DNA of 64,000 bases from an uncultured delta proteobacterium (GTDB lineage: Bacteria; Desulfobacterota; Binatia; Binatales; Binataceae). The position numbers and the translations under genes are program-made. Location of the stretch: NCBI GenBank assembly GCA_963851325.1, contig CAWKOR010000002.1, forward strand, positions 263,289 through 327,288, given 5' to 3'. Numbering within the stretch: the stretch's first letter is position 1; each line of letters opens with the position of its first letter. The notes beneath the pieces are model-generated. The model was not told the DNA's origin. It searched no databases and worked only from the letters and a program-made list of their open reading frames with translations. This document shows positions 640 through 29,263 of this stretch, in pieces.

Positions 640-839
640 GTCACCGATTCCCCCCGCTGATACACACAGCAAATGGCGGGCCTACCGAGGCATTCGCGGC
701 GGTACATCAAATCCTTGGTTTTAATCGGATGCCGGAGCATCCAGCCATGCGCCGGTGCGAGCATGACTCTTTGTGAATCATGCTCCATCGGATGGTTATC
801 GCAACGGTGAAGGGGACTGTCTCACAATGAGGCGTCGGC

Positions 840-2718: not shown

Positions 2719-3663
2719 CTAGCGCGCCCCCTGCGACATGGCGCGCACGATTTCCATCATCGCAGGCCCGACGATCACGATCATCATCGCGGGCAGGATA
2801 AAAAAGATCAGCGGAAATAAAATTTTTACGGTGGTCTTCTGCGCGGCTTCCTCGGCTCGCAGCCGCCGCGAGTTGCGCAAACTGTCCGACAACGCGCGCA
2901 ACGCCGGACCCATTCGCGAGCCCAGCTGCTCGCTCTGAATCATGGTGGCCGCCAATGGCTTGATGTCTTCGATTTTGGTGCGCTCCGCGAGCGCGCGGAG
3001 TGCGAAGCCCAGGCCGGTGCCGGAATTCAGTTCCGCGGACACCATCGCGAGTTCGCGTCCGATCAATTGTCCCTGGCGATCCGCTTCGTTACCGACCATC
3101 TTGATGGCCTCGGTCACCCCGAGGCCCGCCTCGACGCATACCACCAGCAAATCCAGGACATTGGAAAGCTGGCTGGAAATTTCGGCGCGGCGCTTTTTCG
3201 CGCGATGGACTATCACCTGTAACGGCAACCACGCGCCCAGCGCGGCGCCTGCGATCATCACCACTATGGTGCGTGGCCCGGACCATTCGAGCAGCACACT
3301 CAGCGCGAGGGCCGCGCATGTCATCCCAATCGCCGAGCTGATGCGCACCAACTGAAAGATGTGCATCGCGCGCGCGCCGGGATAGCCGGCTTGCACCATG
3401 ATCTTCGCGACCTTTGCGACTTCGGGGGCGTCGAGCTTGGGTTTGGGAACCTTGCGCAGCGCCCATCTGAACAGCATTTGCGCCATGCTCCGGCTCTCGA
3501 TGTCCCGCGCGTCGAGCGATCCATACGAGACGCGCATTTTGGCGCCCATCTCCGACATCCGCTCGTCGATGACACTGGAGCGCTCAGACATCGCGGCAGA
3601 GATGCATACCGCGACGATCGCCAGCAGGAGGAAAATCACCAGGCTTAGGATTAACGGCGACAT
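2719..3663 (-). CDS. tadC: Flp pilus assembly inner-membrane protein TadC (type II secretion F domain)
   Basis: The ORF 2719..3729 has multiple TM segments and a T2SS-F-type cytoplasmic domain. The likely start is the internal ATG at 3661-3663 (MSPLILSLVIFLLLA...), which overlaps the tadB stop (ATGA-type junction). The ORF-track start is a TTG. Confidence 0.8.
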   Translation of the reverse strand: MSPLILSLVIFLLLAIVAVCISAAMSERSSVIDERMSEMGAKMRVSYGSLDARDIESRSMAQMLFRWALRKVPKPKLDAPEVAKVAKIMVQAGYPGARAMHIFQLVRISSAIGMTCAALALSVLLEWSGPRTIVVMIAGAALGAWLPLQVIVHRAKKRRAEISSQLSNVLDLLVVCVEAGLGVTEAIKMVGNEADRQGQLIGRELAMVSAELNSGTGLGFALRALAERTKIEDIKPLAATMIQSEQLGSRMGPALRALSDSLRNSRRLRAEEAAQKTTVKILFPLIFFILPAMMIVIVGPAMMEIVRAMSQGAR

Positions 3664-3664
3664 T

Positions 3665-4615
3665 TCAATACTTGACCTTGAGCAACTTGCGAATCGACAG
3701 GAACGCGAGCACATCCAGGGTCGCCGCAATCTTCAGCAGTCGCTGGCCGCCCGGTTCATAAAACAGAGTGTGGGTGTACGAGGGCTGGATGACGCTGAAG
3801 GCGGCAAGCAGAATGGCTGGAAGCGCCGCCACCACCCATCCGCTCATCCGTGCCTGCGCCGTGAGCGCCTTCACCTGGCTGGTGAGGCGATGGCGAATGC
3901 GAACGATCTCGGCCAGCCGCTCGATTATCACCGCGAGACTGCTGCCGACTTCGGACTGAACGCGCACCGCGACGATCAGTAGCCGGAGGTCGTCATCGGG
4001 AACCCGCTTGAGCATCTCCTCCAAGGCACGCGGGAGCGGAAAACCAAGCCGGGTCTGCTCGATGACCGAGCGGAATTCGGTCGCAATCGGATCTTCGAAC
4101 TCGCCCACCACTACTTGCAGTCCGCGCAACAGTGAGTGGCCCGCTTCGAGCGAGGATTTGAGCAGGTCGAGCGCGAACGGAAGTTGCTGCCCGAAACGTT
4201 TGATGCGGCGCCCGCGCTTGATCCGGATGTAGAAGATCGGCAGGATGGCGAGCCCGCCGCCCAAAGCGATCGCGAAAACCGGATCCGACCACAGCGCGGC
4301 GCCAATCAAGGCGCCCGCCCCGAACATCAACAGCATCAGCAGCAAAATATCGCTGACCCGGCGATAGATGCCCGCTTGCCAGAGACTCTGCTCCAGCTTG
4401 TGCATCACGCCGAGGTCGTAGAACCATCCGAGCCCCGAGCTGAGGCCGCGCTCCTTCTTGAGATGATCGCGAAGGATTTCTTCGCCTGCCACCTGCGGCC
4501 TGCGGAGCCGATTCTCGAGCTGACGCGCTTCGTGCGCCGGGCGGGTGTTGCGCAACACAAAGTAGCCGACCACCCCCGCCACCAACGCCAACAACAAGAG
4601 CCCCAGGAGTTCCAT
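3665..4615 (-). CDS. tadB: Flp pilus assembly inner-membrane protein TadB (type II secretion F domain)
   Basis: 316 aa; N-terminal TM, then a GspF-like domain and C-terminal TM helices. It sits immediately downstream of cpaF and upstream of tadC. Confidence 0.85.
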   Translation of the reverse strand: MELLGLLLLALVAGVVGYFVLRNTRPAHEARQLENRLRRPQVAGEEILRDHLKKERGLSSGLGWFYDLGVMHKLEQSLWQAGIYRRVSDILLLMLLMFGAGALIGAALWSDPVFAIALGGGLAILPIFYIRIKRGRRIKRFGQQLPFALDLLKSSLEAGHSLLRGLQVVVGEFEDPIATEFRSVIEQTRLGFPLPRALEEMLKRVPDDDLRLLIVAVRVQSEVGSSLAVIIERLAEIVRIRHRLTSQVKALTAQARMSGWVVAALPAILLAAFSVIQPSYTHTLFYEPGGQRLLKIAATLDVLAFLSIRKLLKVKY

Positions 4616-4620
4616 CGCGT

Positions 4621-6006
4621 TTAAGCCTCGGCGGCGCGGATGAGCCGCGTGTCGGTCTTGTATCCGGCGATCTCCAGCCGGCGCGCATATGACGAACGAA
4701 TTCCGGTCGGCCGATAAACGCCGATGATCGCGCCGTCGGGCGCGCTGTCGGTCCGGCTGAATTCGTAGAGGTCCTGCATCATGATCATCTCGCCTTCCAT
4801 TCCGGAAATCTCGGAAATCTTCATCACCTTGCGCGAGCCGTCAGACAGGCGAGCGACGTGAACGATCATGTTGATGGCGGCAGCCACTTGCTGGCGCATC
4901 GCGCGTTGCGGAATAGGGAATCCGGAAAGCAGCATCATCATTTCGAGGCGGCCAAGGCATTCGCGCGCGCTGTTGGCGTGGATGGTGGCGATCGAACCAT
5001 CGTGCCCGGTGCTCATCGCCTGCAACATGTCGAACACCTCAGCGCCGCGGCATTCGCCGACCACGATTCGGTCGGGGCGCATTCGCAGCGTGTTTTTCAG
5101 TAGATCGCGCTGGGTGACTTCGCCCTTCCCTTCCATGTTCGCGGGGCGAGTCTCGAGGCGCACCACGTGCGGCTGCTGCAGTGACAACTCCGCAGAATCC
5201 TCGATGGTGACGATGCGCTCATTTTCGGGGACGAACGCCGAGAGGCAATTGAGCATCGTGGTCTTTCCGGAACCGGTCCCGCCACATACCAGGATGTTGA
5301 GGCGGGCCCGCACCACGGCCATCAGAAACTCGACCATCTCCCAGGTGACGGTGCCTTTTTCGACCAGACCTCCGATGTCGTAGCGCTTCTTTCCGAAACG
5401 TCGAATCGACAGCGAGGGCCCATCGATCGCAAGCGGCGGAATGATTGCGTTGATACGCGAGCCGTCGGGCAGGCGCGCATCGACCTTCGGCGACGCTTCA
5501 TCGATACGGCGTCCAACCCGCGAGACGATGCGATCGATGATCAGCATCACGTGCTGATCGTCATAGAACTGCACGTCGGTGAGATGGAGCTTACCGCCCT
5601 TCTCGACGTAAACCTGGTGGGCGCCATTGACCATGATGTCGGTCACCGCGTCGTCGCGCAGCAGCGGCTCCAGCGGCCCGAGGCCGAGCAACTCGTTTTT
5701 GATCTCCTCGACCAGCCGATCGCGGTCGGCATCGGTAAGCAGCCGCCCGTCCTCGCTCAGGATGTCGGTGATGGCCGCGATGACCTTGGTAGAAACCAGC
5801 GAAGGCTCGAGCGATTCCAGTTTCGAAATGTCGACCGTCTCGAACAGCCGGTTGTGAACCTTGATCTTGAGCCGCCGCGCGCCTTCGGAGAGGAGGTCCG
5901 GCTTGCGCTTGGCATTGCTTGCTATGAATGAACCGGGCGCGTCGGCGTCGCAACCATGCCGTGCGTCGTCGGATCGTTTTTGTCCCAGCCGGCCGGCAAG
6001 TCCCAT
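4621..6006 (-). CDS. cpaF: Flp pilus assembly secretion ATPase CpaF/TadA
   Basis: 461 aa with Walker [12 protein letters not shown], the Asp box, Walker B IVVGECRG and a His box (ATIHANSA), typical of the VirB11/GspE-family CpaF ATPase. Confidence 0.9.
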
Positions 6007-6017
6007 GATGCCCTACC

Positions 6018-7238
6018 TCAAGAGTGTGCGCTGAAGGCGGAGAACAGCCGCGCCATGAATGGCCGCTCGCGTTGCGCCGCCCCTTCGACATTGGCCATCC
6101 GGCACGCGAGCGACTCGAAGGTCTTCACCAGAGGCGAAGCAGCGGCGACCTGCCACAGATCCTTGCCGCTGAGTTCCGCGAGCTCGAACGATTTGTCGTC
6201 GCGCAGAATGTTCACGTACATCGGGCGTCCGAGCGTGTTCTCCACTTGTTTCTGCGTAATGCTGTGGGTGAGTTGAAAGCGATTGAGCAGGAAGTGCGGT
6301 TCGACCGCCAGGCTCAGCCGCTCGAACACGTCGATGAAGCGCCACGCCGAACGGACCGAAATGACCGACTGATTCAGCACATAAATGAGATGATTGGAGC
6401 GCTCCCAGGCCGAGACCGAATTCTCATCGAGGTGATGTCCGCCATCCACGATCACAAAGTCGAACATGTCGCGCATGAAATCGATTACCGTTCCCACGGT
6501 GCTGTCGGAAATCAGCTCGCCTTCCTCGATCCGCTTGGGCGCCGCGAGCAGATACACGCCTGACGAATGCTTGGTGAGCGCCGCTTCCAATTGAATCGAG
6601 TCCAGCTTCTTCTCCAGCCTGCATAGCGGCATGATGGTGAACTCGGGCTCGAGGTTGAGCAGCACCGCCAGTGCGCCGTTTTGCAAGTCCAGGTCGAGCA
6701 GCGCGACCCGCTTGTCCAGTTGGTAACGCAGCGCGAGCGCGAGGTTGACCGCAATCGAGCTGACCCCCACTCCGCCGACCATGCTGGCCAGCGAAATCAC
6801 CATGCCGCCATCGTGCCGTCCACTGCGGACGCGGGTCTCGCTGACTTTCAGGAGCGCACGGGTAAGGTCGCCCGGGTCCAACGGCAGGAAAAGCAGCTCG
6901 TCGGCGCCCGCGCGAATCACGCGCTTCATCAATCCGGGAGAACGCTCCTTGAGCAGGCCGAACAGAGCCGGGCGCGGCGTTTGCGATGCGTGACTCTGCA
7001 GGTAGGCGAGCGAACCGCCCTCGTCGCCGTTAAAAAGCACCATCGAGACGTCGACCGGTTCGCTCGCAGAGGTATCGGAATTCGAGTTGCCGTGTGGATC
7101 GGATTCGATTAGCTGCAGCGGCGGTTCGCTGATTCGTGCGAGCGCCAGCTTGACGGCGTCGCGAAGCTCGGACGCATGACCTATCAGGCCGATCCGCAAG
7201 GCCGCCTTCTTCGCGCTATTCACATCGATTACTGACAC
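6018..7238 (-). CDS. cpaE: Flp pilus assembly protein CpaE/TadZ (receiver-like N-domain plus ParA/MinD-like ATPase domain)
   Basis: 406 aa; an N-terminal response-regulator-like domain followed by a deviant Walker A region (ISLASMVGGVGVSSIAVNLA), characteristic of CpaE/TadZ. Confidence 0.85.
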   Translation of the reverse strand: MSVIDVNSAKKAALRIGLIGHASELRDAVKLALARISEPPLQLIESDPHGNSNSDTSASEPVDVSMVLFNGDEGGSLAYLQSHASQTPRPALFGLLKERSPGLMKRVIRAGADELLFLPLDPGDLTRALLKVSETRVRSGRHDGGMVISLASMVGGVGVSSIAVNLALALRYQLDKRVALLDLDLQNGALAVLLNLEPEFTIMPLCRLEKKLDSIQLEAALTKHSSGVYLLAAPKRIEEGELISDSTVGTVIDFMRDMFDFVIVDGGHHLDENSVSAWERSNHLIYVLNQSVISVRSAWRFIDVFERLSLAVEPHFLLNRFQLTHSITQKQVENTLGRPMYVNILRDDKSFELAELSGKDLWQVAAASPLVKTFESLACRMANVEGAAQRERPFMARLFSAFSAHS

Positions 7239-7252
7239 CCAATACTCCTTGG

Positions 7253-9049
7253 TTAGAACCGTGGACGGGCTGGATCGGGCTCGGCGAGTCGCTTGGTGCG
7301 GACTTCGTCTTCGGTCAATGGCCCGCGCTCGGACGGCTCCAACACCTGCCCGTTGGGCGGCAGCGGGCCTACGATTTGCGGACGTACGGACATAACCAGA
7401 TCGGTTTGCGCGTCCTGCCAGTCGGTGTTGCGGAACACCGCGCCCAGGTAAGGAATGTCGCCCAGATATGGAACCTTATGCACGACCGCGTTGCGGTTGC
7501 TGAGGATCAAACCCGCGATAATCAGCGTCTGGCCGTCTTTGAGCCGAACCATGGTGTCGGCCTTGCGGGTCACGAAAGCGGGGACGGTAAAGCCGAACAG
7601 CGATACTCCATGCGCATAATCAGGTTCTGAAACTTCGGTCTTGACCAGCAGCTCGATGTCGTCGCGGCCGATCACAGTCGGGCGGCAATTAATCTGGGTG
7701 CCGAACTGCTTGAAGACGATTGATGTGTTGAGCGCTTGCGCAAGCACGATCGGAATCTCGCCGCCGGACAGAAATGACGCGCTCTGTCCCGAGTTTGCCA
7801 GCAGATGCGGCTGCGCCAGGATGCGTCCAAGATTGTGCGACTCCAGGAACTGGAACAGCGATTGGGTCGCGATACCGGAACCCAGGGTCGACAATCCATA
7901 GGTCATCGTGCTGGAAAGCAGCAGCGGCAGCAGTTGCCCTCCAGGTGGAGCGACACCGGGCACCCCGCCGCTTCCGCCACTGAGCTGCGAGGTCGGACCA
8001 TAGGGGCTCGCGACCAGCCCGGGCAGACTCGATAGCGACACGCCGGTGTTCTGCAGGGCAACTGAAAAGTCGATTCCCTGGGTTTCGAGCTTGGTGCGAT
8101 CGAGTTCGGCCACGATTGCATTCAGCATCACCTGCTGCTTGCCGCCAGTGTCGATGCGGACCTGCCGTTCCTCGTAGTGGCCGCGATCGTCCCATACCGC
8201 CAGCGTGGTGAAGCCGGGGCGGTGACCAATCAGATTCAACTGATAAGGGCTGGTGACCTGGATATCGGCGATACTGCTGTCGGCAATCGAGATGCGCTTC
8301 AGGCGGCGGGGAAAATCGATGATCTCCGACGCACCGCTCATTACCGATATCACCTCGTCGGGCAGGTAATGGGGCCCTGTCGGTATCGGGTGCCCATGAT
8401 CCGTGATTGCCGGATCGTTTCGGTAGCGAACCGGAAGCGGCGCTTCAGCAGAAGCCGCCTGGCCATTTATCGGCAGCTTCACTGACGGACGATCGTCATT
8501 CGCGTGCGAGTCTTCTCCCGACGCTACATCCGAAGCGAACGCATCGGCGGCGTACGAGAGGCGCACGGTCTGCGACGTTCCGCCACTGATGCGGTTTGCG
8601 GGGGTGGATTTTGGAGACATCGCATCGGTCAGTGCGACCGGACCCGTCCCCGCATCGAGCGGGTTCGCGCGGTCGGCAATCGCGGCAACGTTGACGCGGT
8701 ATGCGACCTGGGCTCCATCATCCTGGGTTACAGTAACTTCCCACTGGCCTCGCTCAGCGCCCATCAGCACCAACTGGCCGGGCGTTTCGCCGTGGATGAC
8801 CAGAGCATGGGGATTTTCAATCACTCGAATCGCAGGTCTGGAATCAATCTTCAGATGATCGATGATCCGGGTTTGTCCGGCGTTCAAATTGATTGTCTGC
8901 GATTGCGCGACGTTTTCCGCGCACAACGGCCCTGCGGTCGCAAGCGAGATACTCGCGGCCAGAAGAAATCCCGCAGCGGCGGCGATGGTTGGTAACCTTC
9001 GGTTTTTGATGGTGTCCCGCATTTTCTCGCCGGCGAAGAATTCGCTCAT
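7253..9049 (-). CDS. cpaC: Flp pilus secretin CpaC/RcpA
   Basis: 598 aa with a signal peptide and a C-terminal secretin domain (VPYLGDIPYLGAVFRNT...). It overlaps the cpaB stop by 4 nt. Confidence 0.85.
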   Translation of the reverse strand: MSEFFAGEKMRDTIKNRRLPTIAAAAGFLLAASISLATAGPLCAENVAQSQTINLNAGQTRIIDHLKIDSRPAIRVIENPHALVIHGETPGQLVLMGAERGQWEVTVTQDDGAQVAYRVNVAAIADRANPLDAGTGPVALTDAMSPKSTPANRISGGTSQTVRLSYAADAFASDVASGEDSHANDDRPSVKLPINGQAASAEAPLPVRYRNDPAITDHGHPIPTGPHYLPDEVISVMSGASEIIDFPRRLKRISIADSSIADIQVTSPYQLNLIGHRPGFTTLAVWDDRGHYEERQVRIDTGGKQQVMLNAIVAELDRTKLETQGIDFSVALQNTGVSLSSLPGLVASPYGPTSQLSGGSGGVPGVAPPGGQLLPLLLSSTMTYGLSTLGSGIATQSLFQFLESHNLGRILAQPHLLANSGQSASFLSGGEIPIVLAQALNTSIVFKQFGTQINCRPTVIGRDDIELLVKTEVSEPDYAHGVSLFGFTVPAFVTRKADTMVRLKDGQTLIIAGLILSNRNAVVHKVPYLGDIPYLGAVFRNTDWQDAQTDLVMSVRPQIVGPLPPNGQVLEPSERGPLTEDEVRTKRLAEPDPARPRF

Positions 9050-10089
9050 GGCAACTCCAAAGTTTTCGGTACCGGCATGTAGGAGGCCGATGGCGCGCCC
9101 TCGGACTGGATGGAGCTTGCCGCAGCGCCGGTCACAGCAGAGCTGGAAGCATCGGGGGCTGCGGTCACGGTCGAGGTTTGAGGTACGCTGGGCGCCGCCA
9201 TCGGTGATTCGTGATGAGTTGAACTTCCGTTGGCGCCGGCAGAAATGAACGAAACGGTTTCGGCGTTCTTTCCATCGCGCATGATCTCGACCGCGAAGGG
9301 ATGGCGTCCGGCGCCGACAATTCTTCGCGGCATCAGATTGGACAGCGGCTGTGCGTTGATCGCAGGGGCAGTGCCATTGGGCCCCAGCAGATCAGCGAAG
9401 TCGCTGCCCGCAGTCGCGACGATCTTGTTATCGTTGTAGTTGCGCATCGCGAGCCGCAGGTTTCCTTCGCGGCTGGCGAGGCCGAGTTTTTCCCCGTCGT
9501 GCGGAGTGACCAGTAGCGTGACCACCTTGACGACTTCGGCCTCGTCCTTGCCCTTGTCGATCTGCTGGGCGACTGCGATCACTTCGATGTTCTGCAGCAC
9601 GATCTTCGAGTACGGTTTGTTGTTGTCGGCGCCGGTCCCCGACACCGCAACCAGCACGTCGACGTGGGTGTGAGGTTTCACGAAACCCGAAATGTCGCCG
9701 ACTTCGTCGACCGCGACCGACATCGCACGCATCCCGGGCGGAATGATCATCGGCATCACGCCGGGAATCCGGTCGCCCTGGATGAGATTGCGCCGGACCA
9801 GCGGCTGGCCCGCAACCATTTCATTTCTGGCGAAGCTGTTACCGACCATCGAGGGATCGGTGAAAGCGCCGTCCGGAACGCTCTGGCGCGACCACCGGAC
9901 CAGCTTCACATCAACTGGGGTAAGCTTCTCTCCGAGTTGCAGATCGCGCGCGGCGACCACAATGTCCTGGGTTTGTGCGCGCGCGACTTGAACCTGCGCC
10001 TCGCGGTTTTTCAGCGCGGAAAACACCACGATGCCTGCGAGCACCGCTGCTACCATCGCCAACATCAGGAAAATTGTCGGCCTTCTCAT
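9046..10089 (-). CDS. cpaB: Flp pilus assembly protein CpaB (SAF domain)
   Basis: 347 aa with an N-terminal TM anchor, a CpaB/RcpC-like SAF domain and a Ser/Ala/Thr-rich C-terminal tail. A GAGGGG RBS lies upstream of the ATG at 10087-10089. Confidence 0.85.
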   Translation of the reverse strand: MRRPTIFLMLAMVAAVLAGIVVFSALKNREAQVQVARAQTQDIVVAARDLQLGEKLTPVDVKLVRWSRQSVPDGAFTDPSMVGNSFARNEMVAGQPLVRRNLIQGDRIPGVMPMIIPPGMRAMSVAVDEVGDISGFVKPHTHVDVLVAVSGTGADNNKPYSKIVLQNIEVIAVAQQIDKGKDEAEVVKVVTLLVTPHDGEKLGLASREGNLRLAMRNYNDNKIVATAGSDFADLLGPNGTAPAINAQPLSNLMPRRIVGAGRHPFAVEIMRDGKNAETVSFISAGANGSSTHHESPMAAPSVPQTSTVTAAPDASSSAVTGAAASSIQSEGAPSASYMPVPKTLELP

Positions 10090-10141
10090 TTTCCCCTCTG
10101 AAAAACCCCTTCGCTCAAAACTTGCTTCGGCGCGCTTCGAG

Positions 10142-10185
10142 GCGAACCTCGCTCATGCGCGAATGAACGCGCTGGGCGAGGTTCG
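10142..10185 (-). other. Intercistronic stem-loop between flp and cpaB (candidate attenuator or partial terminator)
   Basis: A 10-11 bp inverted repeat gcgaacctcgc / gcgaggttcg encloses a nested gcgcg-aatgaa-cgcgc hairpin. It lies directly after the flp stop codon and before the cpaB RBS. Confidence 0.35.
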
Positions 10186-10199
10186 ACTTGAGGACGCTG

Positions 10200-10388
10200 C
10201 TATGCGGCATTCAGTGAATTGGTGACGGTGGTGATCAGGCCGTTGATGCCGGTTTCGAGGCCCTGGTAGGCGATGTAGCCCGCCACTGCGATCGCGGCGA
10301 TAATCAGCACATACTCGGTCATGGTCTGGCCGCGCTGACTGCGTTTGGTTTCGACGATTCGGGTGCAGATTGTGGTTAGAAAACTCAT
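10200..10388 (-). CDS. flp: Flp/Fap-family prepilin
   Basis: 62 aa. A leader ending ...SQRG is followed by QTMTEYVLIIAAIAVAGYIAYQGL, which fits the G/XXXXEY TadV cleavage motif plus a hydrophobic pilin core. It is the first gene of the tad operon. Confidence 0.75.
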   Translation of the reverse strand: MSFLTTICTRIVETKRSQRGQTMTEYVLIIAAIAVAGYIAYQGLETGINGLITTVTNSLNAA

Positions 10389-10474
10389 GCGTATCTCCTT
10401 CGAAATTCTTTTCCACCATCATCACCGCGTTTACTTCTGGCAACTGGATGTGATGGAGGTTCAAGCGGGAGATG

Positions 10475-10490
10475 TGCACGTCGCGTGCCA
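10475..10490 (-). promoter_or_regulatory. Candidate sigma-54 (-24/-12) promoter for flp
   Basis: The minus strand reads TGGCAC-GCGAC-GTGCA, with GG and GC at the canonical spacing of the TGGCAC-N5-TTGCW consensus. It lies ~85-100 nt upstream of the flp ATG. Sigma-54 activators are encoded at both ends of the region. Confidence 0.45.
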
Positions 10491-10533
10491 CCCGGGCTGG
10501 TCGGTCGTTAACACCGCCGCGTCCGGGAGCCCT

Positions 10534-10654
10534 TCTCAAAGTGGGACAGCCTTACGATTGGCGACGTTGGAGTTAGAGTCGTCACGAGCTGACGAGTTAC
10601 TCGCGGCGTTGGGCTCGATGCGATTGGGACCGCACGATGATTCCCACTTTGAGA
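10534..10654. promoter_or_regulatory. Pair of perfect 13-bp inverted-repeat arms (tctcaaagtggga / tcccactttgaga) 95 bp apart, upstream of the flp sigma-54 promoter; candidate enhancer (UAS) sites
   Basis: Arms at 10534-10546 and 10642-10654 are exact reverse complements. They lie ~55 and ~165 bp upstream of the -24 element, the usual range for EBP binding sites. Confidence 0.3.
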
Positions 10655-10793
10655 CGTTCCGTCCCAAGCGCGTCGCTCAAAGGTCGTCGCGTTGCGGGGC
10701 ATCGCGGACCGAGACATCGCCCATCGCCAGGCTTGCCAATTTGGGCACAGGGCGTCAGACTTTAGGTGTGGGCGGGGATCGAGGTACGCATGG

Positions 10794-11693
10794 ATGCGCA
10801 ATCGCAATGATTCCCGTTTTCTTAAGACGGCGCGGAGCGCGCTCGCGCTATCCGCAATCCCAGCGATCGTTGTCCTAGTCTCCGGATGTGCACCGACGGC
10901 ATTGTCGTCGGCACGTCAGAAAATGGCGGCCGGCCAGTACGCGGCAGCGCGCCAGGAGTTGCTCGCGATTCCGCTGGATACTCTTAGCGACTCGCAACGG
11001 ACCGAGGTCAAAGACGATCTTTGCTTTTCGGTCTTCATGCTCGGCGAACCGACCTACTCCTCCGGCGAGCAGCGCCGCGTATGCGCCGATGCCTCGAAGG
11101 AGCCGGGCAGCCAGAGCGCGCAGTTCGTCGAAAAGATCGACGATCGGATCCGCCGAACATCATCCGAGAAAGTCAACGCGGCCCTCGCCAGCGGCGACCT
11201 GGGCGGCGCGGAGCAGGCGGCGCAGGTATACGTGAACACTCCCGGCGCCGACCCGGCGGTGGTTACGCGCTGGTCACGGCAGATGTGGGGGCTGGTGAAT
11301 CAGCGCGATCATCGCACCGAAGCGCGTCATAAGAAGGAACTGGCGGCAGCCATCGCGGTGGTGCGCAAGCAGCATCCGGCGATGCGCAAAATGACCAACA
11401 ACCAGTTCGTGGTATGGGTTGCGCAGCAAGGCAGCGTGGCGGGGACCGCAATGTTTTCCTCGGTCGCGCTCAAAGACCAGCAGTTGGACCTCGCGATTCG
11501 AAAACAGGAGGTGCAAGTCGCCTCGCTCAAGCTCGATCGCCTTTCTGCAATCAATGATGCGACGATCGCCCGATGTGGCTGCGACGGGCGCACCAACGTT
11601 GGCCTTGCAGAAACCAACTTTCCGCTCTATCTGGTAAGACTCGACCCTGAAACCCAGCGATCGGAAGTGTTGATTCTGCCGCATCGCCAATAG
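10794..11693 (+). CDS. Hypothetical lipoprotein
   Basis: The ORF 10692..11693 has an internal start MRNRNDSRFLKTARSALALSAIPAIVVLVSGC with a lipobox (LVSGC) and a GAGGT RBS 8 nt upstream of the ATG at 10794. No recognisable catalytic motifs. Confidence 0.6.
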   Translation: MRNRNDSRFLKTARSALALSAIPAIVVLVSGCAPTALSSARQKMAAGQYAAARQELLAIPLDTLSDSQRTEVKDDLCFSVFMLGEPTYSSGEQRRVCADASKEPGSQSAQFVEKIDDRIRRTSSEKVNAALASGDLGGAEQAAQVYVNTPGADPAVVTRWSRQMWGLVNQRDHRTEARHKKELAAAIAVVRKQHPAMRKMTNNQFVVWVAQQGSVAGTAMFSSVALKDQQLDLAIRKQEVQVASLKLDRLSAINDATIARCGCDGRTNVGLAETNFPLYLVRLDPETQRSEVLILPHRQ

Positions 11694-18579: not shown

Positions 18580-19118
18580 TGCTCGTCCGGTGCGGGCCCC
18601 AACTCGATCAGGGTCGCGCCGTGGTCAACGCGCTGGCCGACCTGCACGCATACGCGCTTGATGATGGCAGGACTTTCTGCGCTCAAGGTGGTTTCGGTCT
18701 TCATCGCTTCCAGCACGATCAGCGGATCGTTGGTCGCCACCTTCGCGCCTTCGCTCACCAGAATCTTCAGCACCGTACCCGGCATCGGCGCATCGATGGT
18801 CGGCGCAGTGAGGCCGGCATGACCCGCGCCGCGACGGGCCTCGACCACTTGATACTCCGCACTCATCGGGCCGGCGGCGACGAGAATCGAGTTCGCGCGC
18901 CTGCGGCCGGCGATGCGATAGCGGCGCCCGCCGACCACAAGCATGGCGCTTCCGTCAGCCAAGGTTTCCAGCGCAGCAGAAATTTCCTCGCCGTCAATGC
19001 GCGCGGTGAGGTCCGAATCGGAAACCGCCACGAGATCCACCTCGCGCTCGGAACCACCGCCGATCCGTTTGAATCTCAGCGGTGTTGCCATAGTTGAAAC
19101 CTTCCCAGCGTGCTCCAC
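18576..19118 (-). CDS. Biotin carboxyl carrier domain protein (C-terminal part of an MCC-alpha-like carboxylase)
   Basis: The C-terminus has the biotinyl-lysine region IVLEAMKTETTLSAESPAI (EAMK). It overlaps the upstream BC ORF by 43 nt in a different frame. Confidence 0.7.
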   Translation of the reverse strand: MEHAGKVSTMATPLRFKRIGGGSEREVDLVAVSDSDLTARIDGEEISAALETLADGSAMLVVGGRRYRIAGRRRANSILVAAGPMSAEYQVVEARRGAGHAGLTAPTIDAPMPGTVLKILVSEGAKVATNDPLIVLEAMKTETTLSAESPAIIKRVCVQVGQRVDHGATLIELGPAPDEQ

Positions 19119-22195: not shown

Positions 22196-22298
22196 GGCTC
22201 CTCAACCGCTGCAAATCTTTGTCGCAGAATCCGAAAGCCTCAGCAACGGGGCGACCTCGCAGGTCGCTTCGTTATCAGACGAGATGCGGTTTGATGAG

Positions 22299-22930: not shown

Positions 22931-24121
22931 ATGAGTCTGAGCGAGGATACAGTTGCGCAGTCGTCTACCGCGCCGGTTGCACACTTGCGTCATTCCGGAT
23001 CACTCGGCGCCGGGCCCGACTGGATAAGCATCGAGAGGCTGGTTGAAGGTTCCGAGCGGGTCGGCGGAATGCTGATTCGGTCGGTGCAGTTCAAGCGGCT
23101 TTTCGCCAGCATCATCCGGTTTGCACCGCACAAGGCCACCGTGCTGATTCAGGGCGAATCGGGTACCGGCAAGGAGCTGGTCGCTCGTTCCCTACATAGT
23201 CTGGGCGCCGTTCCTAACGGACCTTTCGTGACCTTCAACTGCTCGAACCTGGTCGATTCGCTGGCGGAATCGCAGCTATTCGGCCATGTGAAGGGCGCCT
23301 TCACCGATGCGCGCGAGGACTCCCTCGGCTACTTCCGTTCCGCGAACGGCGGCACCTTGTTTCTGGACGAGATCGGCGAGTTGCCCCTGAAACTCCAGCC
23401 CAAGCTGCTCCGCGCCGTCGAAATGCACGAGGTTCAGCCGGTAGGCTCCTCACACAGTTATAAGGTCGATATTCGGTTGGTTGCGGCCACCAATCGCGAC
23501 TTGCGCTCGATGGTGAAGGCCGGTGAGTTTCGCGACGATCTGTATTATCGCCTCAACGCCGCGGCGTTGATCATTCCGCCGCTGCGCGATCGGCGCGACG
23601 CGATTCCCGCCTTCGTCGGCCATTTCGTCGAACAATATTGCCGGCTCTTCGCCAAGGACATCCGGCGCATTTCTCGCCAGGCGGTCGAGGCATTGTGCGC
23701 CTACTCATGGCCGGGCAATGTTCGCGAACTCGCCCATGCGGTCGAGAGCGCGGTGCTGATGGCCGACGGAGATGGCATTACGCTCAACGAACTTCCCAGC
23801 AATGTGCTCGAAGGTCGCGATGCCTCGGCTGTCCCGATTACAGAGGTTACCGCGACCGCGCTTCCGGCGGAAATTCCGGATGCGGCCGTAGTACCAGCGA
23901 TCAACCCGGAAGCGGCTGCGGAATCGAAGTTTTCGCTCGACGCAGCGATTCGCGAAGCCTCCAAGGACGCCCTGGTTCGCGCGCTCAATGCCACCCACGG
24001 CAATTGCCATCGCGCGGCCGATCTCTTGGGAGTCTCGCGCTATACGGTTTACCGGATGCTTGCGCGCTACGGATTGACCGAATCGCGCGGCTATCGAAGC
24101 TGGCGCAAGAGCCCCGCTTAA
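22931..24121 (+). CDS. Sigma-54-dependent transcriptional activator (AAA+ EBP plus C-terminal Fis-type HTH), lacking an N-terminal regulatory domain
   Basis: 396 aa with Walker A GESGTGKE, a GAFTDA loop, ESQLFGH, FRDDLYYRLN and a C-terminal HTH (HGNCHRAADLLGVSRYTVYRML). Only ~30 aa precede the AAA+ core. It is a paralogue of the partial gene at 1..639. Confidence 0.9.
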   Translation: MSLSEDTVAQSSTAPVAHLRHSGSLGAGPDWISIERLVEGSERVGGMLIRSVQFKRLFASIIRFAPHKATVLIQGESGTGKELVARSLHSLGAVPNGPFVTFNCSNLVDSLAESQLFGHVKGAFTDAREDSLGYFRSANGGTLFLDEIGELPLKLQPKLLRAVEMHEVQPVGSSHSYKVDIRLVAATNRDLRSMVKAGEFRDDLYYRLNAAALIIPPLRDRRDAIPAFVGHFVEQYCRLFAKDIRRISRQAVEALCAYSWPGNVRELAHAVESAVLMADGDGITLNELPSNVLEGRDASAVPITEVTATALPAEIPDAAVVPAINPEAAAESKFSLDAAIREASKDALVRALNATHGNCHRAADLLGVSRYTVYRMLARYGLTESRGYRSWRKSPA

Positions 24122-25002
24122 CCGGGTTCGGAGGGGGGGCGCGGTCGGCCAAATTTCCACGCCGGCAGCTCGCGCCCGATGAGCTTCTCCAGTTTCTCGA
24201 TCTCGGGGCGATACAACTCGCGCATCCGCTGGACGACCTCGTCGGAGAGCGGAGGAAACGGATCGCCTCCTTCGAGCATGTACTTGATGATCCTGCTCTC
24301 GCGCACCAGGTTCGCCGCGCGATAGTAACGGCGCGCGACGAACCACGCGACCACATCGCGCGCGATCTTCGCGAGCCTGCGGTTGGGCGGTTGCGTGTTG
24401 ACACTAAGAACGCGCTCGGCGCCCACCCGCGATGATGAAATCGGAAAGCGCGCGATCCCGATAAAGTCGCACACCAGATCGAGGAAAGCCTGCGGATTCG
24501 ATTCCAAATCGTCGTAGATGAGAACCAGCACCCGCTCGCGGCCGAACGCTCTGATCCACTCGCCCAGATGAGTTCCGTAGCGGCTCGATTCAAGCAAATC
24601 GCCGCGCGTTGTCGCGGCGCGCTCGAAGTCGACCTTGGTCGATGCCAGGCGCCGCAGCAACCGGTAGTTCGAGTATGCGCGCTCAACCGGATCGCGAAAC
24701 GAGCAAATTATCTTGCATGTGGGCAGATGTTCGGCGATTCGTTCGCGCGCTTGCGGTGAGGCGAAATACATCGGGCTCAGCTCGCCGACCGGGATCCCGT
24801 CGGTGCAATTCCTAAAATAGTCCGCGTACCAATCGATGCCCCGATCGTAAAAGCGCGTGAAAAAATCGGTCTCCTTGCGATCGGCGGGCAGACAGACGTG
24901 GCCCTTGAGCACCTCGTGAAGCCAGGTCGTCGCGGTGCGAGGCGGCCCGACCGCGATAAAGTCGGGCAGGCGCGACGCGCGGTTTAAGGCGCTCTCGCTC
25001 AC
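24118..25002 (-). CDS. Sulfotransferase-family protein (PAPS-dependent), copy 1
   Basis: 294 aa with a 5'-PSB-like motif (PDFIAVGPPRTATTWL) and a 3'-PB-like motif (SFRDPVERAYS). Its stop overlaps the convergent activator stop by 4 nt. Confidence 0.85.
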   Translation of the reverse strand: MSESALNRASRLPDFIAVGPPRTATTWLHEVLKGHVCLPADRKETDFFTRFYDRGIDWYADYFRNCTDGIPVGELSPMYFASPQARERIAEHLPTCKIICSFRDPVERAYSNYRLLRRLASTKVDFERAATTRGDLLESSRYGTHLGEWIRAFGRERVLVLIYDDLESNPQAFLDLVCDFIGIARFPISSSRVGAERVLSVNTQPPNRRLAKIARDVVAWFVARRYYRAANLVRESRIIKYMLEGGDPFPPLSDEVVQRMRELYRPEIEKLEKLIGRELPAWKFGRPRPPSEPG

Positions 25003-25925
25003 GCCGCCCGGCCCGATTTGCCGCTGAGCGCGCGCACCATCCTGGCGGGCAGAACCGTTCTGACCAGCCGCAGGTAGTTTCGCACCCGATATGGATCGAG
25101 GCTGATGGCCCGCGCAAATGCGTTGCGCGCCGTCGTCCGGTCGCCATGCGCCAGCGCATCCAGGCCGATGTAGCCGAGGATGCTGCGCGGGGCGCGCTCA
25201 CGCGCAAGCACGTGCCTCACCGGATCGACGCCGTAACGCTCCTTAACCATCCGGCGGAAAATCCGACCAGCGGCTTCCTGTCCACCCGAGGGTTTCAAGG
25301 CGGCGGGAAAATGTGCGAACCTCCACGCTGCCAGCTTCTCAGGTACGTAGGCGAAGGGCCCCTGCTCGCGCAGCAGCAGCCACAAGTAGACATCTTCAAA
25401 GGCCCGCAACGATTCCGGAAAGCCGCCTGCCCTGGCGAGCGCGTCACGACGGATGATCACGCCACTGGGCATTATCGGCCACAGCGAATCGAGCATGTCC
25501 TGCACAGTTGGCGGATGATGGTCGCGCACCGCCATCAGCGAGGTTTGAAACGGCTTGCCGAGGCTATCCACTAACTGCAAGTCGCAGTAGGCCACGACGC
25601 ACTCGCGATCGCCATCGAGAGCCGCCGTCATCGCGGAGAGGAAGTCCGGCTTCCACCAGTCATCGGCATCAAGGAATGCGAGATACTCGCCGGTCGAGTG
25701 CGCGACGCCAAGATTTCGCGCGGCCGAAGGTCCGCGATTTTTCTGCTGCAGGATTTTTGCCGCACCGGCATGGCGCTTCAGGATTCCGATACTGCCATCG
25801 GTCGAACCGTCGTCCACCGCAACGATTTCGAAATCGCGCAACGTCTGCGCGCACACGCTCGCAATTGCCTGCTCGATGGTGCGGGCGGCGTTGAACACCG
25901 GAATGATGACGGATACGCGTGGCAT
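24999..25925 (-). CDS. Family-2 glycosyltransferase, copy 1
   Basis: 308 aa GT-A fold (VSVIIPVFNAARTIEQAIASV..., DDGSTDGS, DADD) with a C-terminal TPR-like tail. Confidence 0.85.
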   Translation of the reverse strand: MPRVSVIIPVFNAARTIEQAIASVCAQTLRDFEIVAVDDGSTDGSIGILKRHAGAAKILQQKNRGPSAARNLGVAHSTGEYLAFLDADDWWKPDFLSAMTAALDGDRECVVAYCDLQLVDSLGKPFQTSLMAVRDHHPPTVQDMLDSLWPIMPSGVIIRRDALARAGGFPESLRAFEDVYLWLLLREQGPFAYVPEKLAAWRFAHFPAALKPSGGQEAAGRIFRRMVKERYGVDPVRHVLARERAPRSILGYIGLDALAHGDRTTARNAFARAISLDPYRVRNYLRLVRTVLPARMVRALSGKSGRAA

Positions 25926-25940
25926 CAGATGGTGGGCGGC

Positions 25941-26828
25941 CTAGGCGCTGGACTTCATCAATGGCGCACGCGACCTCGCGTGGCCGGGCCTGGTTTTCCA
26001 CGCGGAGAGGTCGCGATCGATCAAATGCTCGAGCGCCTCGATTTCGGGTCTAAAATGTTCGCGCAGGCGCGCGTCGATTTCCGGATCGAGCGCGCCAAAT
26101 TCCTCGCCGCCACCGAAGCAGAAGCGCCACACCCCCGCATGTTCGAGCAGCTCGACCGCGCGGTGCCATCGACGAATGCGCATCCAGTCGCGCGCGTTGC
26201 GCGCATTTTGCGCGAGCTTGCGGCTGCGCGGGGCATGGGTGACGGTGTTAACGCGCTCCGACGCGATCGCTGAACCCTCCACTTTGATTCGCTTTGCTCC
26301 AATAAAGTCGCAAATTCCGTCAAGGAACTTTTGCGACGATTGCTCGAGGTCATCGTAGAGGCAGACCAGCACGCGATCCGGGCCGAAACTCCGCTGCCAA
26401 TTGATCAAATGATGCGCGTAGCGGCTGGATTCGCGAATGATGCGATTCTTCGCGATGGTTTCCTCGAAGCTGACCCGCGTCCAGGCGTCCCGACGCATTA
26501 CCCTATACGAGGAATACGCGCGCTCGACCGGGTCGCGCAGAGTCACAATGATCTTCGCGCGAGGTATGTCCTTCTCGATTCGCTCGCGGGCGAGCGCTTC
26601 GCCGAAATAGTTGGGATCCACTTCGCCCAGCGGCAAGTCGGCCGGATAGCCGCGGAAGAACTCCAGATACCACGGCAGTCCCCTGGAATAGTTTTTGAGG
26701 AAAAAATCCGTCTCCTTGATCCCGCGCGGGAGCCCCAACTGAGGCCTCATCACTTCATGAAGCCACGTCGTTCCGGTGCGCTGCGGCCCGACCGCCACAA
26801 AATCGGGCAGCCGCGAGGTGTCATTCAT
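25941..26828 (-). CDS. Sulfotransferase-family protein, copy 2 (paralogue of 24118..25002)
   Basis: 295 aa with PDFVAVGPQRTGTTWL and TLRDPVERAYS; about half its residues are identical to copy 1 by eye. Confidence 0.85.
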   Translation of the reverse strand: MNDTSRLPDFVAVGPQRTGTTWLHEVMRPQLGLPRGIKETDFFLKNYSRGLPWYLEFFRGYPADLPLGEVDPNYFGEALARERIEKDIPRAKIIVTLRDPVERAYSSYRVMRRDAWTRVSFEETIAKNRIIRESSRYAHHLINWQRSFGPDRVLVCLYDDLEQSSQKFLDGICDFIGAKRIKVEGSAIASERVNTVTHAPRSRKLAQNARNARDWMRIRRWHRAVELLEHAGVWRFCFGGGEEFGALDPEIDARLREHFRPEIEALEHLIDRDLSAWKTRPGHARSRAPLMKSSA

Positions 26829-26875
26829 GGCAGGAAATTATCAGCCTCGACGCGCCGCTCCAATATGCTCGCCAT

Positions 26876-27892
26876 CTAGTCCGGCGGGAGGATGGCTTTG
26901 GCCTCGCGATGCGCCGCCTTCCCGCTAAGCCGCAGCGCGAGCCAAGCCGGCATGACCGTTCGCATCAGACGCAACCAGGTTTTGCGTTCGGTGGGATTCC
27001 AGCGCAACGCGCGCAGGAAACAGAGCCGCGCCTCGCGTGTCTCTCCGTGCGCGAGTGCTAGCAGGCCGACACGGCTCAGCAGACTGACCTTGTGACGTCG
27101 ATAGTACGCCGCGAGCGCATCGGCGCGATGCCCGTAGCGTTGTTGGAGCATCGGGATGAAGTTCTGCGTGCCACCTTCGATATCGCGCCGCACGACTCTG
27201 AGCAGTTCCGGGTAGGTATCGTACGCGAAGCGCACCAGCTTCTCGGGCACATATGCGAAGGGCCCCTGCTCGCGCGCGACCAGCCAGAAGAAAATATCTT
27301 CGCATCCGGCAATCGCCGGCGAGAAGCCGCCGATTCGATCGAAAGCCTCGCGTCGGATGACCACCGTGCTCGGCACGATCGGCCATAGTTGCGTTAGCAG
27401 TTCCTCCATCGAAGGCGCACGCGCAACCGGTGGCGGAATCATTTCGATGGCGAGGCCGGCGCCGTCGGAGCCCATCGCAATCATGTTCGAGTATGCCAGA
27501 ACGCATCGCGAATCGCGGTCGAGCGCCTCGAGGCATCGCGCGAGCTTGTCAGGCAGCCACGAATCGTCGGCATCGAGAAACGCGAGGTATTCGCCGCGCG
27601 CGTTCTTCACCGCGAGGTTGCGCGCGATCGCCTGCTGCTTGTGCGCCTGCCTGAGCAGCGTCACCGGTTCGCCGAAGCTCGCGAGGATTTCCAGCGTGCC
27701 ATCGGTTGACCCGTCATCGACGACGATGATTTCCCAATCGTGGATACTCTGTGCGAGCACGCTTTCAATGGCGCGCGCGATGGTTCGAGCTCCGTTGTAG
27801 ACCGGCGTTATTACCGAGACTCGAGGCACTCGGGTTACTCGACTCGTGCTGATCGGCGAACGCCGGCGCACTTCAGCCGTTGATCGATCCAA
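26876..27892 (-). CDS. Family-2 glycosyltransferase, copy 2 (paralogue of 24999..25925)
   Basis: 338 aa (VSVITPVYNGARTIARAIESV, DDGSTDGT, DADD) with the same C-terminal architecture as copy 1. Confidence 0.8.
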   Translation of the reverse strand: MDRSTAEVRRRSPISTSRVTRVPRVSVITPVYNGARTIARAIESVLAQSIHDWEIIVVDDGSTDGTLEILASFGEPVTLLRQAHKQQAIARNLAVKNARGEYLAFLDADDSWLPDKLARCLEALDRDSRCVLAYSNMIAMGSDGAGLAIEMIPPPVARAPSMEELLTQLWPIVPSTVVIRREAFDRIGGFSPAIAGCEDIFFWLVAREQGPFAYVPEKLVRFAYDTYPELLRVVRRDIEGGTQNFIPMLQQRYGHRADALAAYYRRHKVSLLSRVGLLALAHGETREARLCFLRALRWNPTERKTWLRLMRTVMPAWLALRLSGKAAHREAKAILPPD

Positions 27893-27970
27893 TCAATGCT
27901 TCGCGATATCGCGGACCCGCGGGTCCGCTTCGTCCGAGTTCGCGTGCCTGCACACAGGGTTCCTTCCGGA

Positions 27971-29263
27971 CTACGCTTTTGCGATCGCGTCGAGCATCGA
28001 TGCTTCCAGGATTCCTAGTCCCTCGTCCGCCAGTTCCAGCGACATCGTAAGCGGCATCAGCACCCGGATCACATTTGCGTAGATGCCGCAGCTTAGCACG
28101 ATGAGCCCGCGCTCGGTGGCTTTCGCAGCGATGCTTTTCGCGAGCTGCGGCGCGGGCTCCTTGCTCCCGCGATGGCTGACAAACTCGATTGCGAGCATCG
28201 GGCCGAGCCCTCGCACATCGCCGATGCAGGCGAATCGGGGATCTGCTTGAAATGCGTGGAGTCTCTGCGCCACGTGCTCACCGAGCTTCTGTGCGCGGCC
28301 AATGATTCCCTCTTCTTCCATCACGTCCAGAACTGCGAGACCGGCGGCGCAGGATACAGCGTTGCCGGCGAAGGTGCTGCCAAGCCCACCGGGTGCCGGT
28401 GCGTCCATCACGTCGGCGCAGCCGATCACCGCCGAGATCGGAAATCCGCCACCGATGGCCTTGGCGATAGCGATGAGGTCCGGAACTACGCCGGAATGCT
28501 CGATCGCGAACATTTTTCCGGTTCTCCCGAAGCCGGTCTGAATCTCGTCCGCGACGAGCAGTATGCCGTGCCGGTCGCACAAGCGGCGCAGTGCGCGCAT
28601 AAATTCAAATGGCGCGACATTGAAGCCGCCCTCGCCTTGCACCGGTTCGATGACGATCGCGGCTACGCGCGAGGCTTCGACCTCGGCGCGGAAAATCTGC
28701 TCGATACTTGCGAGGCTGGCCTCGCTCGACCCGCCGCGATAGGCATCGGGAAACGCGGCATGAAACACGTCGGCGGAGAACGGACCGAAGCCGACTTTGT
28801 ATGGATTGACTTTTCCGGTCAGCGCCAAGGCCATCATGGTGCGGCCATGGAAGCCGCCGCTGAAGGAAATAATTGCCGGCCGTCCGGTCGCGGCGCGCGC
28901 GATTTTCACCGCGTTCTCAATTGCCTCTGCGCCGGTCGAAAGGATGATGGTCTTCTTCGGCGAGGCGCCGGGCGCGAGTTGATTCAGTCGTTCCGCCAGC
29001 CGGACGTAAACCTCATACGGCGTGACCTGAAAACAGGTGTGGGTGAACGCCTCAAGTTGGTCGCGCACCGCCGCGAGTACGCGCGGGTGACGATGCCCGA
29101 TGTTCTGCACCGCGATGCCGCCGGCGAAATCGATGTAACGGCGGCCCTCGACGTCCCACAGTTCAGCGTTTTCGGCGCGCGCGGCGAACAGCGGAGTGGC
29201 GATTGAAATTCCGCGCGGCACTGCGGTCGACAATCTGGCGGCGAGTTGTTGATTGGAATCCAT
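27971..29263 (-). CDS. Class-III PLP-dependent aminotransferase (GabT / 4-aminobutyrate aminotransferase-like)
   Basis: 430 aa with a PLP-lysine region (GKMFAIEHSGVVPDLIAIAKAIGGGFP) and the characteristic N-terminal motifs. Confidence 0.85.
   Translation of the reverse strand: MDSNQQLAARLSTAVPRGISIATPLFAARAENAELWDVEGRRYIDFAGGIAVQNIGHRHPRVLAAVRDQLEAFTHTCFQVTPYEVYVRLAERLNQLAPGASPKKTIILSTGAEAIENAVKIARAATGRPAIISFSGGFHGRTMMALALTGKVNPYKVGFGPFSADVFHAAFPDAYRGGSSEASLASIEQIFRAEVEASRVAAIVIEPVQGEGGFNVAPFEFMRALRRLCDRHGILLVADEIQTGFGRTGKMFAIEHSGVVPDLIAIAKAIGGGFPISAVIGCADVMDAPAPGGLGSTFAGNAVSCAAGLAVLDVMEEEGIIGRAQKLGEHVAQRLHAFQADPRFACIGDVRGLGPMLAIEFVSHRGSKEPAPQLAKSIAAKATERGLIVLSCGIYANVIRVLMPLTMSLELADEGLGILEASMLDAIAKA

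Follow-up and report, generated by a model that had tools for sequence, protein, structure and literature searches.

How transcription of a pilus operon is started is the question raised by a locus in a 64,000-nucleotide stretch of DNA (the window; contig CAWKOR010000002.1, assembly GCA_963851325.1) from an uncultured delta proteobacterium of the Binataceae. The pilin gene flp (10200..10388, minus strand, ATG at 10388) encodes a protein of 62 residues and is the first gene of a tad operon. An intergenic region of 405 nt separates it from a divergent gene. The original prediction, made from the letters of the window, placed in this region a sigma-54 promoter and two complementary 13-mers, read as enhancer sites or a DNA-looping element, and tied them to enhancer-binding proteins (EBPs) encoded in the window. 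The present analysis points, with a probability of about 0.6, to a sigma-54 promoter at flp that is activated from palindromic sites by the adjacent EBP.

The -24/-12 element, TGGCACGCGACGTGCA, lies at 10475..10490 on the minus strand, with GG at 10489-10488 and GC at 10477-10476; its letters and GG/GC spacing are as originally described. Scored against the sigma-54 consensus TGGCACG-N4-TTGCW, it agrees with 11 of the 12 specified positions, and the GG-N10-GC spacing is exact. It is the sole site with at most one mismatch in the whole 64-kb window. The match alone is weak evidence, because 0.73 such sites are expected by chance somewhere in the window and 50 of 100 shuffles contained at least one. 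What makes it notable is its placement in the intergenic region, on the sense strand and near flp; by proportion, any one 300-nt stretch of sense strand ahead of a gene is expected to hold about 0.002 such sites. The position upstream of flp holds, and the distance, first put at about 85-100 nt from the ATG, is 101 nt when measured from the first G of GG (98-107 nt in the orthologues).

Related loci were collected by a CpaB search of the genome collection, which gave 62 loci (L001-L062), all from metagenome-assembled genomes labelled Candidatus Binataceae, Candidatus Binatus or uncultured (delta)proteobacterium. The close orthologous set, L001-L006, has CpaB proteins 75-83% identical and a single flp gene each, as in the window. 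The 520 nt upstream of flp in the window and these six loci were aligned with MAFFT. In the seven sequences TGGCACGC-N4-TGCA is invariant, while its flanks are largely unalignable; the mean identity over 13 columns reaches 0.91 at this island, compared with 0.68 for the whole alignment. A wider alignment of flp upstream DNA from the clade (24 sequences) retains the promoter with few substitutions, for example TGGCATG and CGGCA, and gives the consensus block TGGCACGCGA.CTGCac.

The element is also found across the family. A recognisable flp is present in 56 Binataceae genome loci, and 52 of them carry TGGCA[CT]-N6-TGC[AT] on the sense strand within 450 nt upstream of the first flp. The remainder of the same loci (2.06 Mb, both strands) contains 17 matches, which predicts 0.2 upstream of flp; the observed count is thus about 250 times the background. 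An Flp search of metagenomes added 80 loci, 78 of them with sufficient upstream DNA, and 64 of the 78 have the slightly looser element.GG[CT]A[CT]-N6-TGC[AT] within 200 nt of flp. The genome and metagenome loci are related to one another, and neither count is a series of independent trials. The leader length varies by sub-clade (about 62-68, 82, 100-112 or 190 nt) and the promoter is kept.

Phylogenetic footprinting, by the seven-sequence island and the counts in both collections, strongly supports the sigma-54 reading that was first proposed, and it makes a sigma-54 promoter of flp very likely. According to standard sigma-54 geometry, transcription would start about 12 nt past the -12 GC, at 10462..10466 on the minus strand and presumably near 10464, leaving a 5′ untranslated region (UTR) of about 76 nt. 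The expression of flp would then depend on RpoN. A scan of 10050-10900 for the strict sigma-70 consensus and for terminators found neither.

Upstream of the promoter are the two exact reverse-complement 13-mers of the original prediction, TCTCAAAGTGGGA at 10534-10546 and its complement at 10642-10654, the arms being 95 nt apart. Of 2000 sequences simulated for the 405-nt region with a first-order Markov model, 0.15% contained an inverted repeat that was exact, non-overlapping and 13 nt or longer (p about 0.0015). Each 13-mer is a copy of an internal palindrome, TCyCA-N3-TGrGA, with TGTCyCA-N3-TGrGA as the fuller form. We term the proximal copy S1 (10534..10546, TCCCACTTTGAGA on the minus strand) and the distal copy S2 (10642..10654, TCTCAAAGTGGGA on the minus strand). 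Their distances from the promoter, given earlier as 55 and 165 bp, are corrected to 51 and 159 bp from the centre of each site to the first G of GG. A third site, S3 (TCTCGGTCCGCGA, 10714..10702, minus strand), has the half-site TGTCTCA and is centred about 219 bp upstream of GG. It is contained in a third conserved block on the minus strand at 10694..10718, GATGTCTCGGTCCGCGATGCCCC, which reads GATGTCTCAGTTCGCGATG from 10718 to 10694. Three dyad-symmetric sites, centred 51, 159 and 219 bp from GG, thus stand upstream of the -24/-12 element; EBP enhancers are typically dyads at about 70-250 bp from it. The proposal of enhancer sites holds in substance, with their positions conserved; the notion of a complementary pair gives way to that of palindromic operator copies, with a third at 10702-10714.

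Comparison with the orthologues argues that the 13-mers are operator copies and not the two arms of a stem, because the arms are not complementary to each other in the orthologues (TTCCAAAGTGAGA and TCCCATTTTGAAA in L001; TATCGAAGTGAGA and TCCCATTGTGAAG in L002) and each is internally palindromic. L003 carries the perfect palindrome TCTCAAGATGAGA, and metagenome loci have the perfect palindromes TCTCAAAATGAGA and TCTCGAAACGAGA, in which both half-sites have changed symmetrically. The exact complementarity in the window is, on this comparison of sequences, best read as two good copies of the palindrome.

Both arms lie in conserved islands and keep their positions; the DNA between them is not conserved. 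The S3-S2 spacing is 60 bp in six of the seven loci and the S2-S1 spacing is 105-108 bp, approximately 10 helical turns, with which a DNA-looping arrangement is compatible. The distance from S1 to GG is 49-62 bp across the seven loci. S2 and S3 are the best conserved sites, and S2 is better kept than S1. Upstream of the promoter, no conserved run is longer than the S3 block, whose mean identity over 13 columns is 0.80-0.87. In the 24-sequence alignment its consensus is gaTGTC.CAgtTcGcGATG.CCC, that of S2 is GTc.CaAa.tGAGAa, and that of the S1 region is CatcGCc.atc.ta.G..TGTC.CA.tTtgA. The left half of S1, TGTCyCA, is kept in nearly all clade sequences and the right half, TTTGA, less so. Adjoining S1 at 10547..10566 (minus strand) is the conserved block CGCCAATCGTAAGGCTG, an island with the 24-sequence consensus CatcGCc.atc.ta.G..TGTC.CA, which may extend S1 or may be a site for a DNA-bending protein.

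A position-weight matrix (PWM) of the palindrome was derived from the seven loci. All matches scoring at least 16 are upstream of flp, with no other in the six related loci of 15-21 kb or in the 64-kb window. Elsewhere in the window, copies of the palindrome are limited to weak matches at chance level, except for one at 832..820, upstream of an EBP gene described below. In metagenome loci of the window clade, S2 is recovered by the PWM 157-171 bp upstream of GG in 14 of about 20 independent loci, several of the copies being perfect palindromes; S1 reaches the threshold in only three.

The domain-less EBPs of the original prediction are borne out by two genes for receiver-less EBPs in the window. 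EBP1 (22931..24121, plus strand, 396 residues) is about 13 kb from flp and matches Sigma54_activat (PF00158) with an E-value of 1.8e-62, together with AAA_lid_14 and HTH_8. EBP2, a tad-linked paralogue on the minus strand, starts with a GTG at 588 and is cut by the start of the window (588..<1). It lies about 2 kb past tadC; its AAA+ domain is seen up to the window edge, and its C-terminus falls outside. The EBP2 orthologue in L001 has Sigma54_activat (3.9e-60), an AAA lid and HTH_8, and no receiver domain. Receiver and sensor domains are absent from both EBP1 and EBP2, the AAA+ domain starting at about residue 50 and in-frame stops limiting the N-terminus. The loop that contacts sigma-54 is GAFTDA in both proteins and in their orthologues. 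In the NCBIfam search the EBPs reached no equivalog cut-off, and identification as the PspF equivalog (TIGR02974) was rejected at 258.6 bits against a cut-off of 443.55.

In the window and in L001, L003, L004 and L006, the tad operon is followed on its own strand by an EBP2-type gene. The operon itself is complete behind flp on the minus strand (10089..2719) and comprises cpaB, cpaC (secretin), tadZ/cpaE, tadA/cpaF, tadB and tadC, with Pfam matches to RcpC, Secretin, T2SSE, T2SSF and a ParA-like family. L002 ends before the position of the EBP gene. L005 and L004 are collinear for only about 14.6 kb, which explains why L005 lacks an EBP gene, and L005 was discarded as a counter-example.

Two observations concern these loci themselves. 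L001 has tandem EBP genes downstream of tad (18794-19870 and 20174-20986), one with GAFTDA and the other with GAYTDA. L005 and L004 are 91% identical across 14.6 kb and lose all similarity beyond about 14,570, in the middle of the tad operon; the break is either a real rearrangement or a chimeric bin assembly.

The EBP2 gene is preceded by sequences resembling those of flp. A GG-N10-GC element, AGGCCCGCCATTTGCT (668..683, minus strand), reads cGGCCCG-N4-TTGCTG, with two mismatches to the consensus. The core GGCCyG-N4-TTGC is conserved, together with its flanks, in five loci (the window, L001, L003, L004 and L006). Further upstream, within 760-832 on the minus strand, are the blocks ATTGTGAGACAG, which contains the flp-type half-site TGAGACA, and TGATTCACAAnGAGTCAT. 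The ATTGTGAGACAG block with its TGAGACA is conserved in the five loci, and the PWM match at 832..820 partly so. This conservation suggests that 668..683 is a candidate sigma-54 promoter of EBP2 and that the protein may regulate its own gene. Upstream of EBP1, the candidate AGGCCCTATTTGCAA has the wrong spacing (GG-N8-GC) and was rejected.

The more distant Binataceae loci, about 30 in number, also have an EBP gene after the tad operon, but on the opposite strand, and it encodes a REC-AAA-HTH_8 protein with a GSFTGA loop. In these loci the element GTTGC-N6-9-GCAAC-N4-8-GTTGCA begins 89-101 nt upstream of TGGCAC (47 of 48 loci), which is a classical enhancer position. GAFTDA EBPs therefore go with TCyCA palindromes in the window clade, and a GSFTGA REC-type EBP goes with GTTGC repeats in its sister clade. 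The promoter is constant while the activator type and the upstream palindrome switch together, as expected if the palindromes are binding sites of the adjacent EBP; the correlation is over two clades and is not proof. The link between flp and the EBPs that had been proposed draws support from this joint switch and from the gene neighbourhood, and the assignment of the protein to S1-S3 is to be taken as predicted. In L026, L036, L042-L044, L047, L053, L057 and L058, a second conserved sigma-54-type element, TGGCATATTTGCTGCA, is found near the REC-type EBP gene, on the minus strand and some 9-10 kb downstream from where cpaB starts.

A sigma-54 RNA polymerase forms a closed complex and cannot open the DNA alone; it needs the ATP hydrolysis of an EBP. 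In the proposed mechanism, flp, and probably the tad operon too, would be transcribed from the sigma-54 (RpoN) promoter at 10490..10475 with a start near 10464. The three imperfect palindromes S1-S3, with the consensus TGTCyCA-N3-TGrGA, would constitute the enhancer, and the likeliest binder is the receiver-less GAFTDA protein EBP2, encoded just downstream of the tad operon. Its dimers could bind S1-S3 through the C-terminal Fis-type helix-turn-helix, come together as a hexamer and engage the promoter through a DNA loop, and ATP hydrolysis would then open the promoter for flp and tad transcription. Since EBP2 lacks both kinds of regulatory domain, receiver and sensor, what presumably governs its activity is its abundance or a trans-acting partner; the former is suggested because its gene carries the conserved -24/-12-like element.

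The accounts that compete with this mechanism depart from it at different steps. The palindromes could be operators of another factor, a repressor or co-activator that would also serve the divergent lipoprotein gene, with the promoter still dependent on sigma-54 and the EBP acting from solution or from other DNA. We consider this unlikely. S3 does lie directly upstream of a conserved element on the opposite strand, TTGCCA-N17-CAGACT, EBP sites are not usually spaced at 60 and 107 bp, and some EBPs, such as FlgR, act without DNA binding. Against it, no other regulator gene is found among the scanned open reading frames (ORFs) of at least 150 residues in the tad neighbourhood (1-17 kb), the EBP type and the palindrome switch together between the clades, and the TGAGACA half-site is conserved upstream of EBP2 as well. 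It is slightly less likely again that S2 alone, with or without S3, is the enhancer, that 10534-10566 is a bending site of the IHF/HU type, and that the complementarity of S1 to S2 is partly coincidental. The poorly conserved right half of S1, its PWM scores of 7-10 in L002 and L004-L006 and the few metagenome loci at threshold would agree with that arrangement. The adjoining conserved CCAATCGTAAGG loosely resembles WATCAA-N4-TTR, the IHF consensus, and the 10534-10566 block is placed between enhancer and promoter, where IHF sites usually are. Yet the match to that consensus is poor and lacks an A/T tract, and the left half of S1, TGTCyCA, is the half-site of S2 and S3 and is kept in nearly all of the 24 sequences.

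Two further accounts are far less probable. It is very improbable that flp owes its transcription to a sigma-70-type promoter, within the leader or upstream of it, and that the -24/-12 match is a coincidence: 0.7 chance matches are expected per window and the leader does contain conserved blocks, whereas the motif is conserved in the family at about 250 times the background, is invariant amid diverged flanks, and no sigma-70 consensus was found. Pairing of the 13-mers as a long-range RNA stem or a DNA cruciform is scarcely credible, despite their perfect 13-nt complementarity in the window. In the alignment 73.6% of cells are paired, and column shuffles give 71.2%; out of 500 shuffles, 47 attain as high a paired percentage and 107 as high a covariation score. 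No compensatory change between the arms beyond that of shuffles was seen, and RNAalifold on the seven orthologues leaves the arms unpaired. The arms, each internally palindromic, would moreover not be transcribed with flp if the start is that of the sigma-54 promoter.

Activation of the flp sigma-54 promoter by EBP2 from S1-S3 has to be set against several observations that weigh the other way. The GAFTDA loop, putatively an active variant, has an Asp where most EBPs have a Gly. On the supporting side, both GAFTDA and GAYTDA are listed among the EBP loop variants of D. vulgaris that are expected to keep activation (PMC4641369). The recognition helices of EBP1 and of the EBP2 orthologues are near-identical, LGVSR(Y/S)T(V/L)YRMLARY, so the sequence cannot tell which EBP acts at flp. 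The -12 region is GTGCA or CTGCA and not TTGCA. The rpoN gene is outside the window, and no RpoN box turned up when the window and L001-L062 were searched in all six frames; sigma-54 is presumably present in the host, because EBP genes and conserved promoters are present. The PWM score of S1 is only 7-10 bits in four of the seven loci (L002, L004-L006), and S1, being half conserved, might instead be the site of a bending protein. Measured from the predicted start, the centres of the sites are about 75, 183 and 243 bp upstream, a wider spread than that of textbook enhancers. S3 is located immediately upstream of what may be the promoter of the lipoprotein gene, and might take part in the control of that gene.

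A broader history can be suggested tentatively. In the window clade, an ancestral REC-AAA-HTH activator with GSFTGA may have been replaced by a receiver-less GAFTDA one, perhaps a tandem pair like HrpR/HrpS, and the enhancer replaced with it. A self-activating sigma-54 loop could then run piliation, with three widely and rigidly spaced palindromes (60 and 107 bp) wrapping or looping about 200 bp of DNA; such a loop is possible because a conserved -24/-12-like element and a related half-site precede the activator gene. To our knowledge, no pilus gene has been described with an enhancer of three palindromes spaced by 60 and 107 bp.

The flp product matches Pfam Flp_Fap with an E-value of 3e-6 and 27.4 bits, just under the gathering score of 32.2, and is 76-89% identical to the orthologues in L001-L006. 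The 5′ UTR of flp (10389..10461, minus strand) has conserved blocks beginning ATCACA and ending in TGATGATCG, and the ribosome-binding site AAGGAGAT. The blocks, ATCACA(T/C)TCAGT and (T/C)TGATGATCG, are able to pair weakly. The stem found by RNAalifold is weak, with one compensatory pair and a single-sequence fold z-score of -1.25; the blocks could form a stabilising 5′ stem or be the binding site of a regulator. Directly after the flp stop and ahead of cpaB, at 10144-10184 on the minus strand, is a hairpin, GAaCCTCGC...GCGAGGtTC. Its 9-bp stem is nearly invariant in the seven orthologues and has one compensatory pair. Because it is without a T-run, it looks like an attenuator or an mRNA-stabilising element, which would let pilin mRNA exceed the mRNA of the assembly genes. 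A hairpin around S2, based on a 21-nt imperfect inverted repeat (10616-10636 and 10655-10675), is absent from the consensus fold. The Rfam E-value scan of 9900-11100 gave sub-threshold chance matches only.

The divergent gene (10794-11693, plus strand) encodes a lipoprotein, MRNRNDSRF...LVSGC, without a Pfam or NCBIfam match, and is paired with flp in all seven close loci. Its start is most likely the ATG at 10794 and not the TTG of the mechanical ORF. The element TTGCCA-N17-CAGACT, at 10733..10761 on the plus strand, is a possible sigma-70-type promoter of this gene; it is conserved (24-sequence consensus of the opposite strand, aAAGTcTG.CGC ... Tt.GCAAGc) and fails the strict consensus scan, and we offer its assignment to the lipoprotein gene as a suggestion only.

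Elsewhere in the window, TGGCATCGCGACTGCT at 29444-29459 (minus strand) is a good -24/-12 match inside the 3′ end of a PBP1C gene. About 180 nt downstream of it begins an operon (29263..24118), convergent with EBP1, that encodes in turn an aminotransferase, a GT2, a sulfotransferase, another GT2 and another sulfotransferase; the match may be a candidate target of EBP1. A tRNA-Lys(ttt) gene (22298-22371, minus strand) is located between a carboxyltransferase gene and EBP1. A tRNA-Phe(gaa) call at 60717-60810 (minus strand) is unusually long, at 94 nt, and inside an ABC-transporter ORF (59892-60848); it is probably a false positive.

Sigma-54 control of pilus genes is real but ordinary, and the small twist here is that activator and enhancer are exchanged while the promoter is kept. 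The present model does not overturn current understanding. It provides a testable regulatory model for Tad/Flp pili in the Binataceae, an uncultured soil and peat lineage without a genetic system, and would extend sigma-54 control of Flp pilins beyond Desulfovibrio. It also offers, within one family, a clear case from nature in which the promoter stays fixed and the regulator is swapped, and the conserved motif can aid the annotation of flp operons and start sites in metagenome-assembled genomes. A search of the literature on sigma-54 or pili in Binatota found no paper. Two possible precedents were set aside: in Pectobacterium, flp/tad expression is independent of the sigma-54-dependent activator VasH, and in Vibrio vulnificus, rpoN and one tad locus are merely co-upregulated, with no regulatory link shown.

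Among known systems, PilS-PilR and sigma-54 control the type IVa pilin genes of Pseudomonas aeruginosa, Myxococcus xanthus and Geobacter sulfurreducens (cited in PMC3333781). As in those systems, a pilin gene is predicted here to stand behind a -24/-12 promoter with an upstream EBP-binding region. Theirs are type IVa pilins, however, and PilR possesses a receiver domain and works with a partner kinase, whereas the pilin here is of the Flp/type IVc kind. In architecture the EBPs of the window are like PspF and HrpR/HrpS, consisting only of an AAA+ sigma-54 interaction domain and a C-terminal helix-turn-helix. The PspF model of NCBIfam can be aligned with the EBP from end to end (positions 4-336 of 336), and the tandem EBP genes of L001 recall the HrpR/HrpS pair. 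No partner resembling PspA or HrpV was identified. Unlike those regulators, which act on a stress operon or a type III secretion operon, the predicted target is a pilus operon.

The closest counterpart is DVU2114 of Desulfovibrio vulgaris Hildenborough, a sigma-54-dependent regulator that targets a Flp-type pilin and tad genes (PMC3333781) and whose motif is conserved in a few relatives (PMC3333781; PMC4641369). In both cases a sigma-54 activator goes with a Flp-type pilin gene that heads a tad/cpa-like cluster (Rajeev et al. 2011, PMC3333781; Kazakov et al. 2015, PMC4641369). DVU2114 belongs to the two-component response regulators and has the canonical GAFTGA, whereas the EBP of the window clade, in the Binataceae lineage, is receiver-less, resembles PspF in architecture and has GAFTDA. 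The wide spacing of the sites is a further difference of the window clade. The sister Binataceae clade, with its REC-type EBP, is closer to DVU2114 and to PilR than the window clade is.

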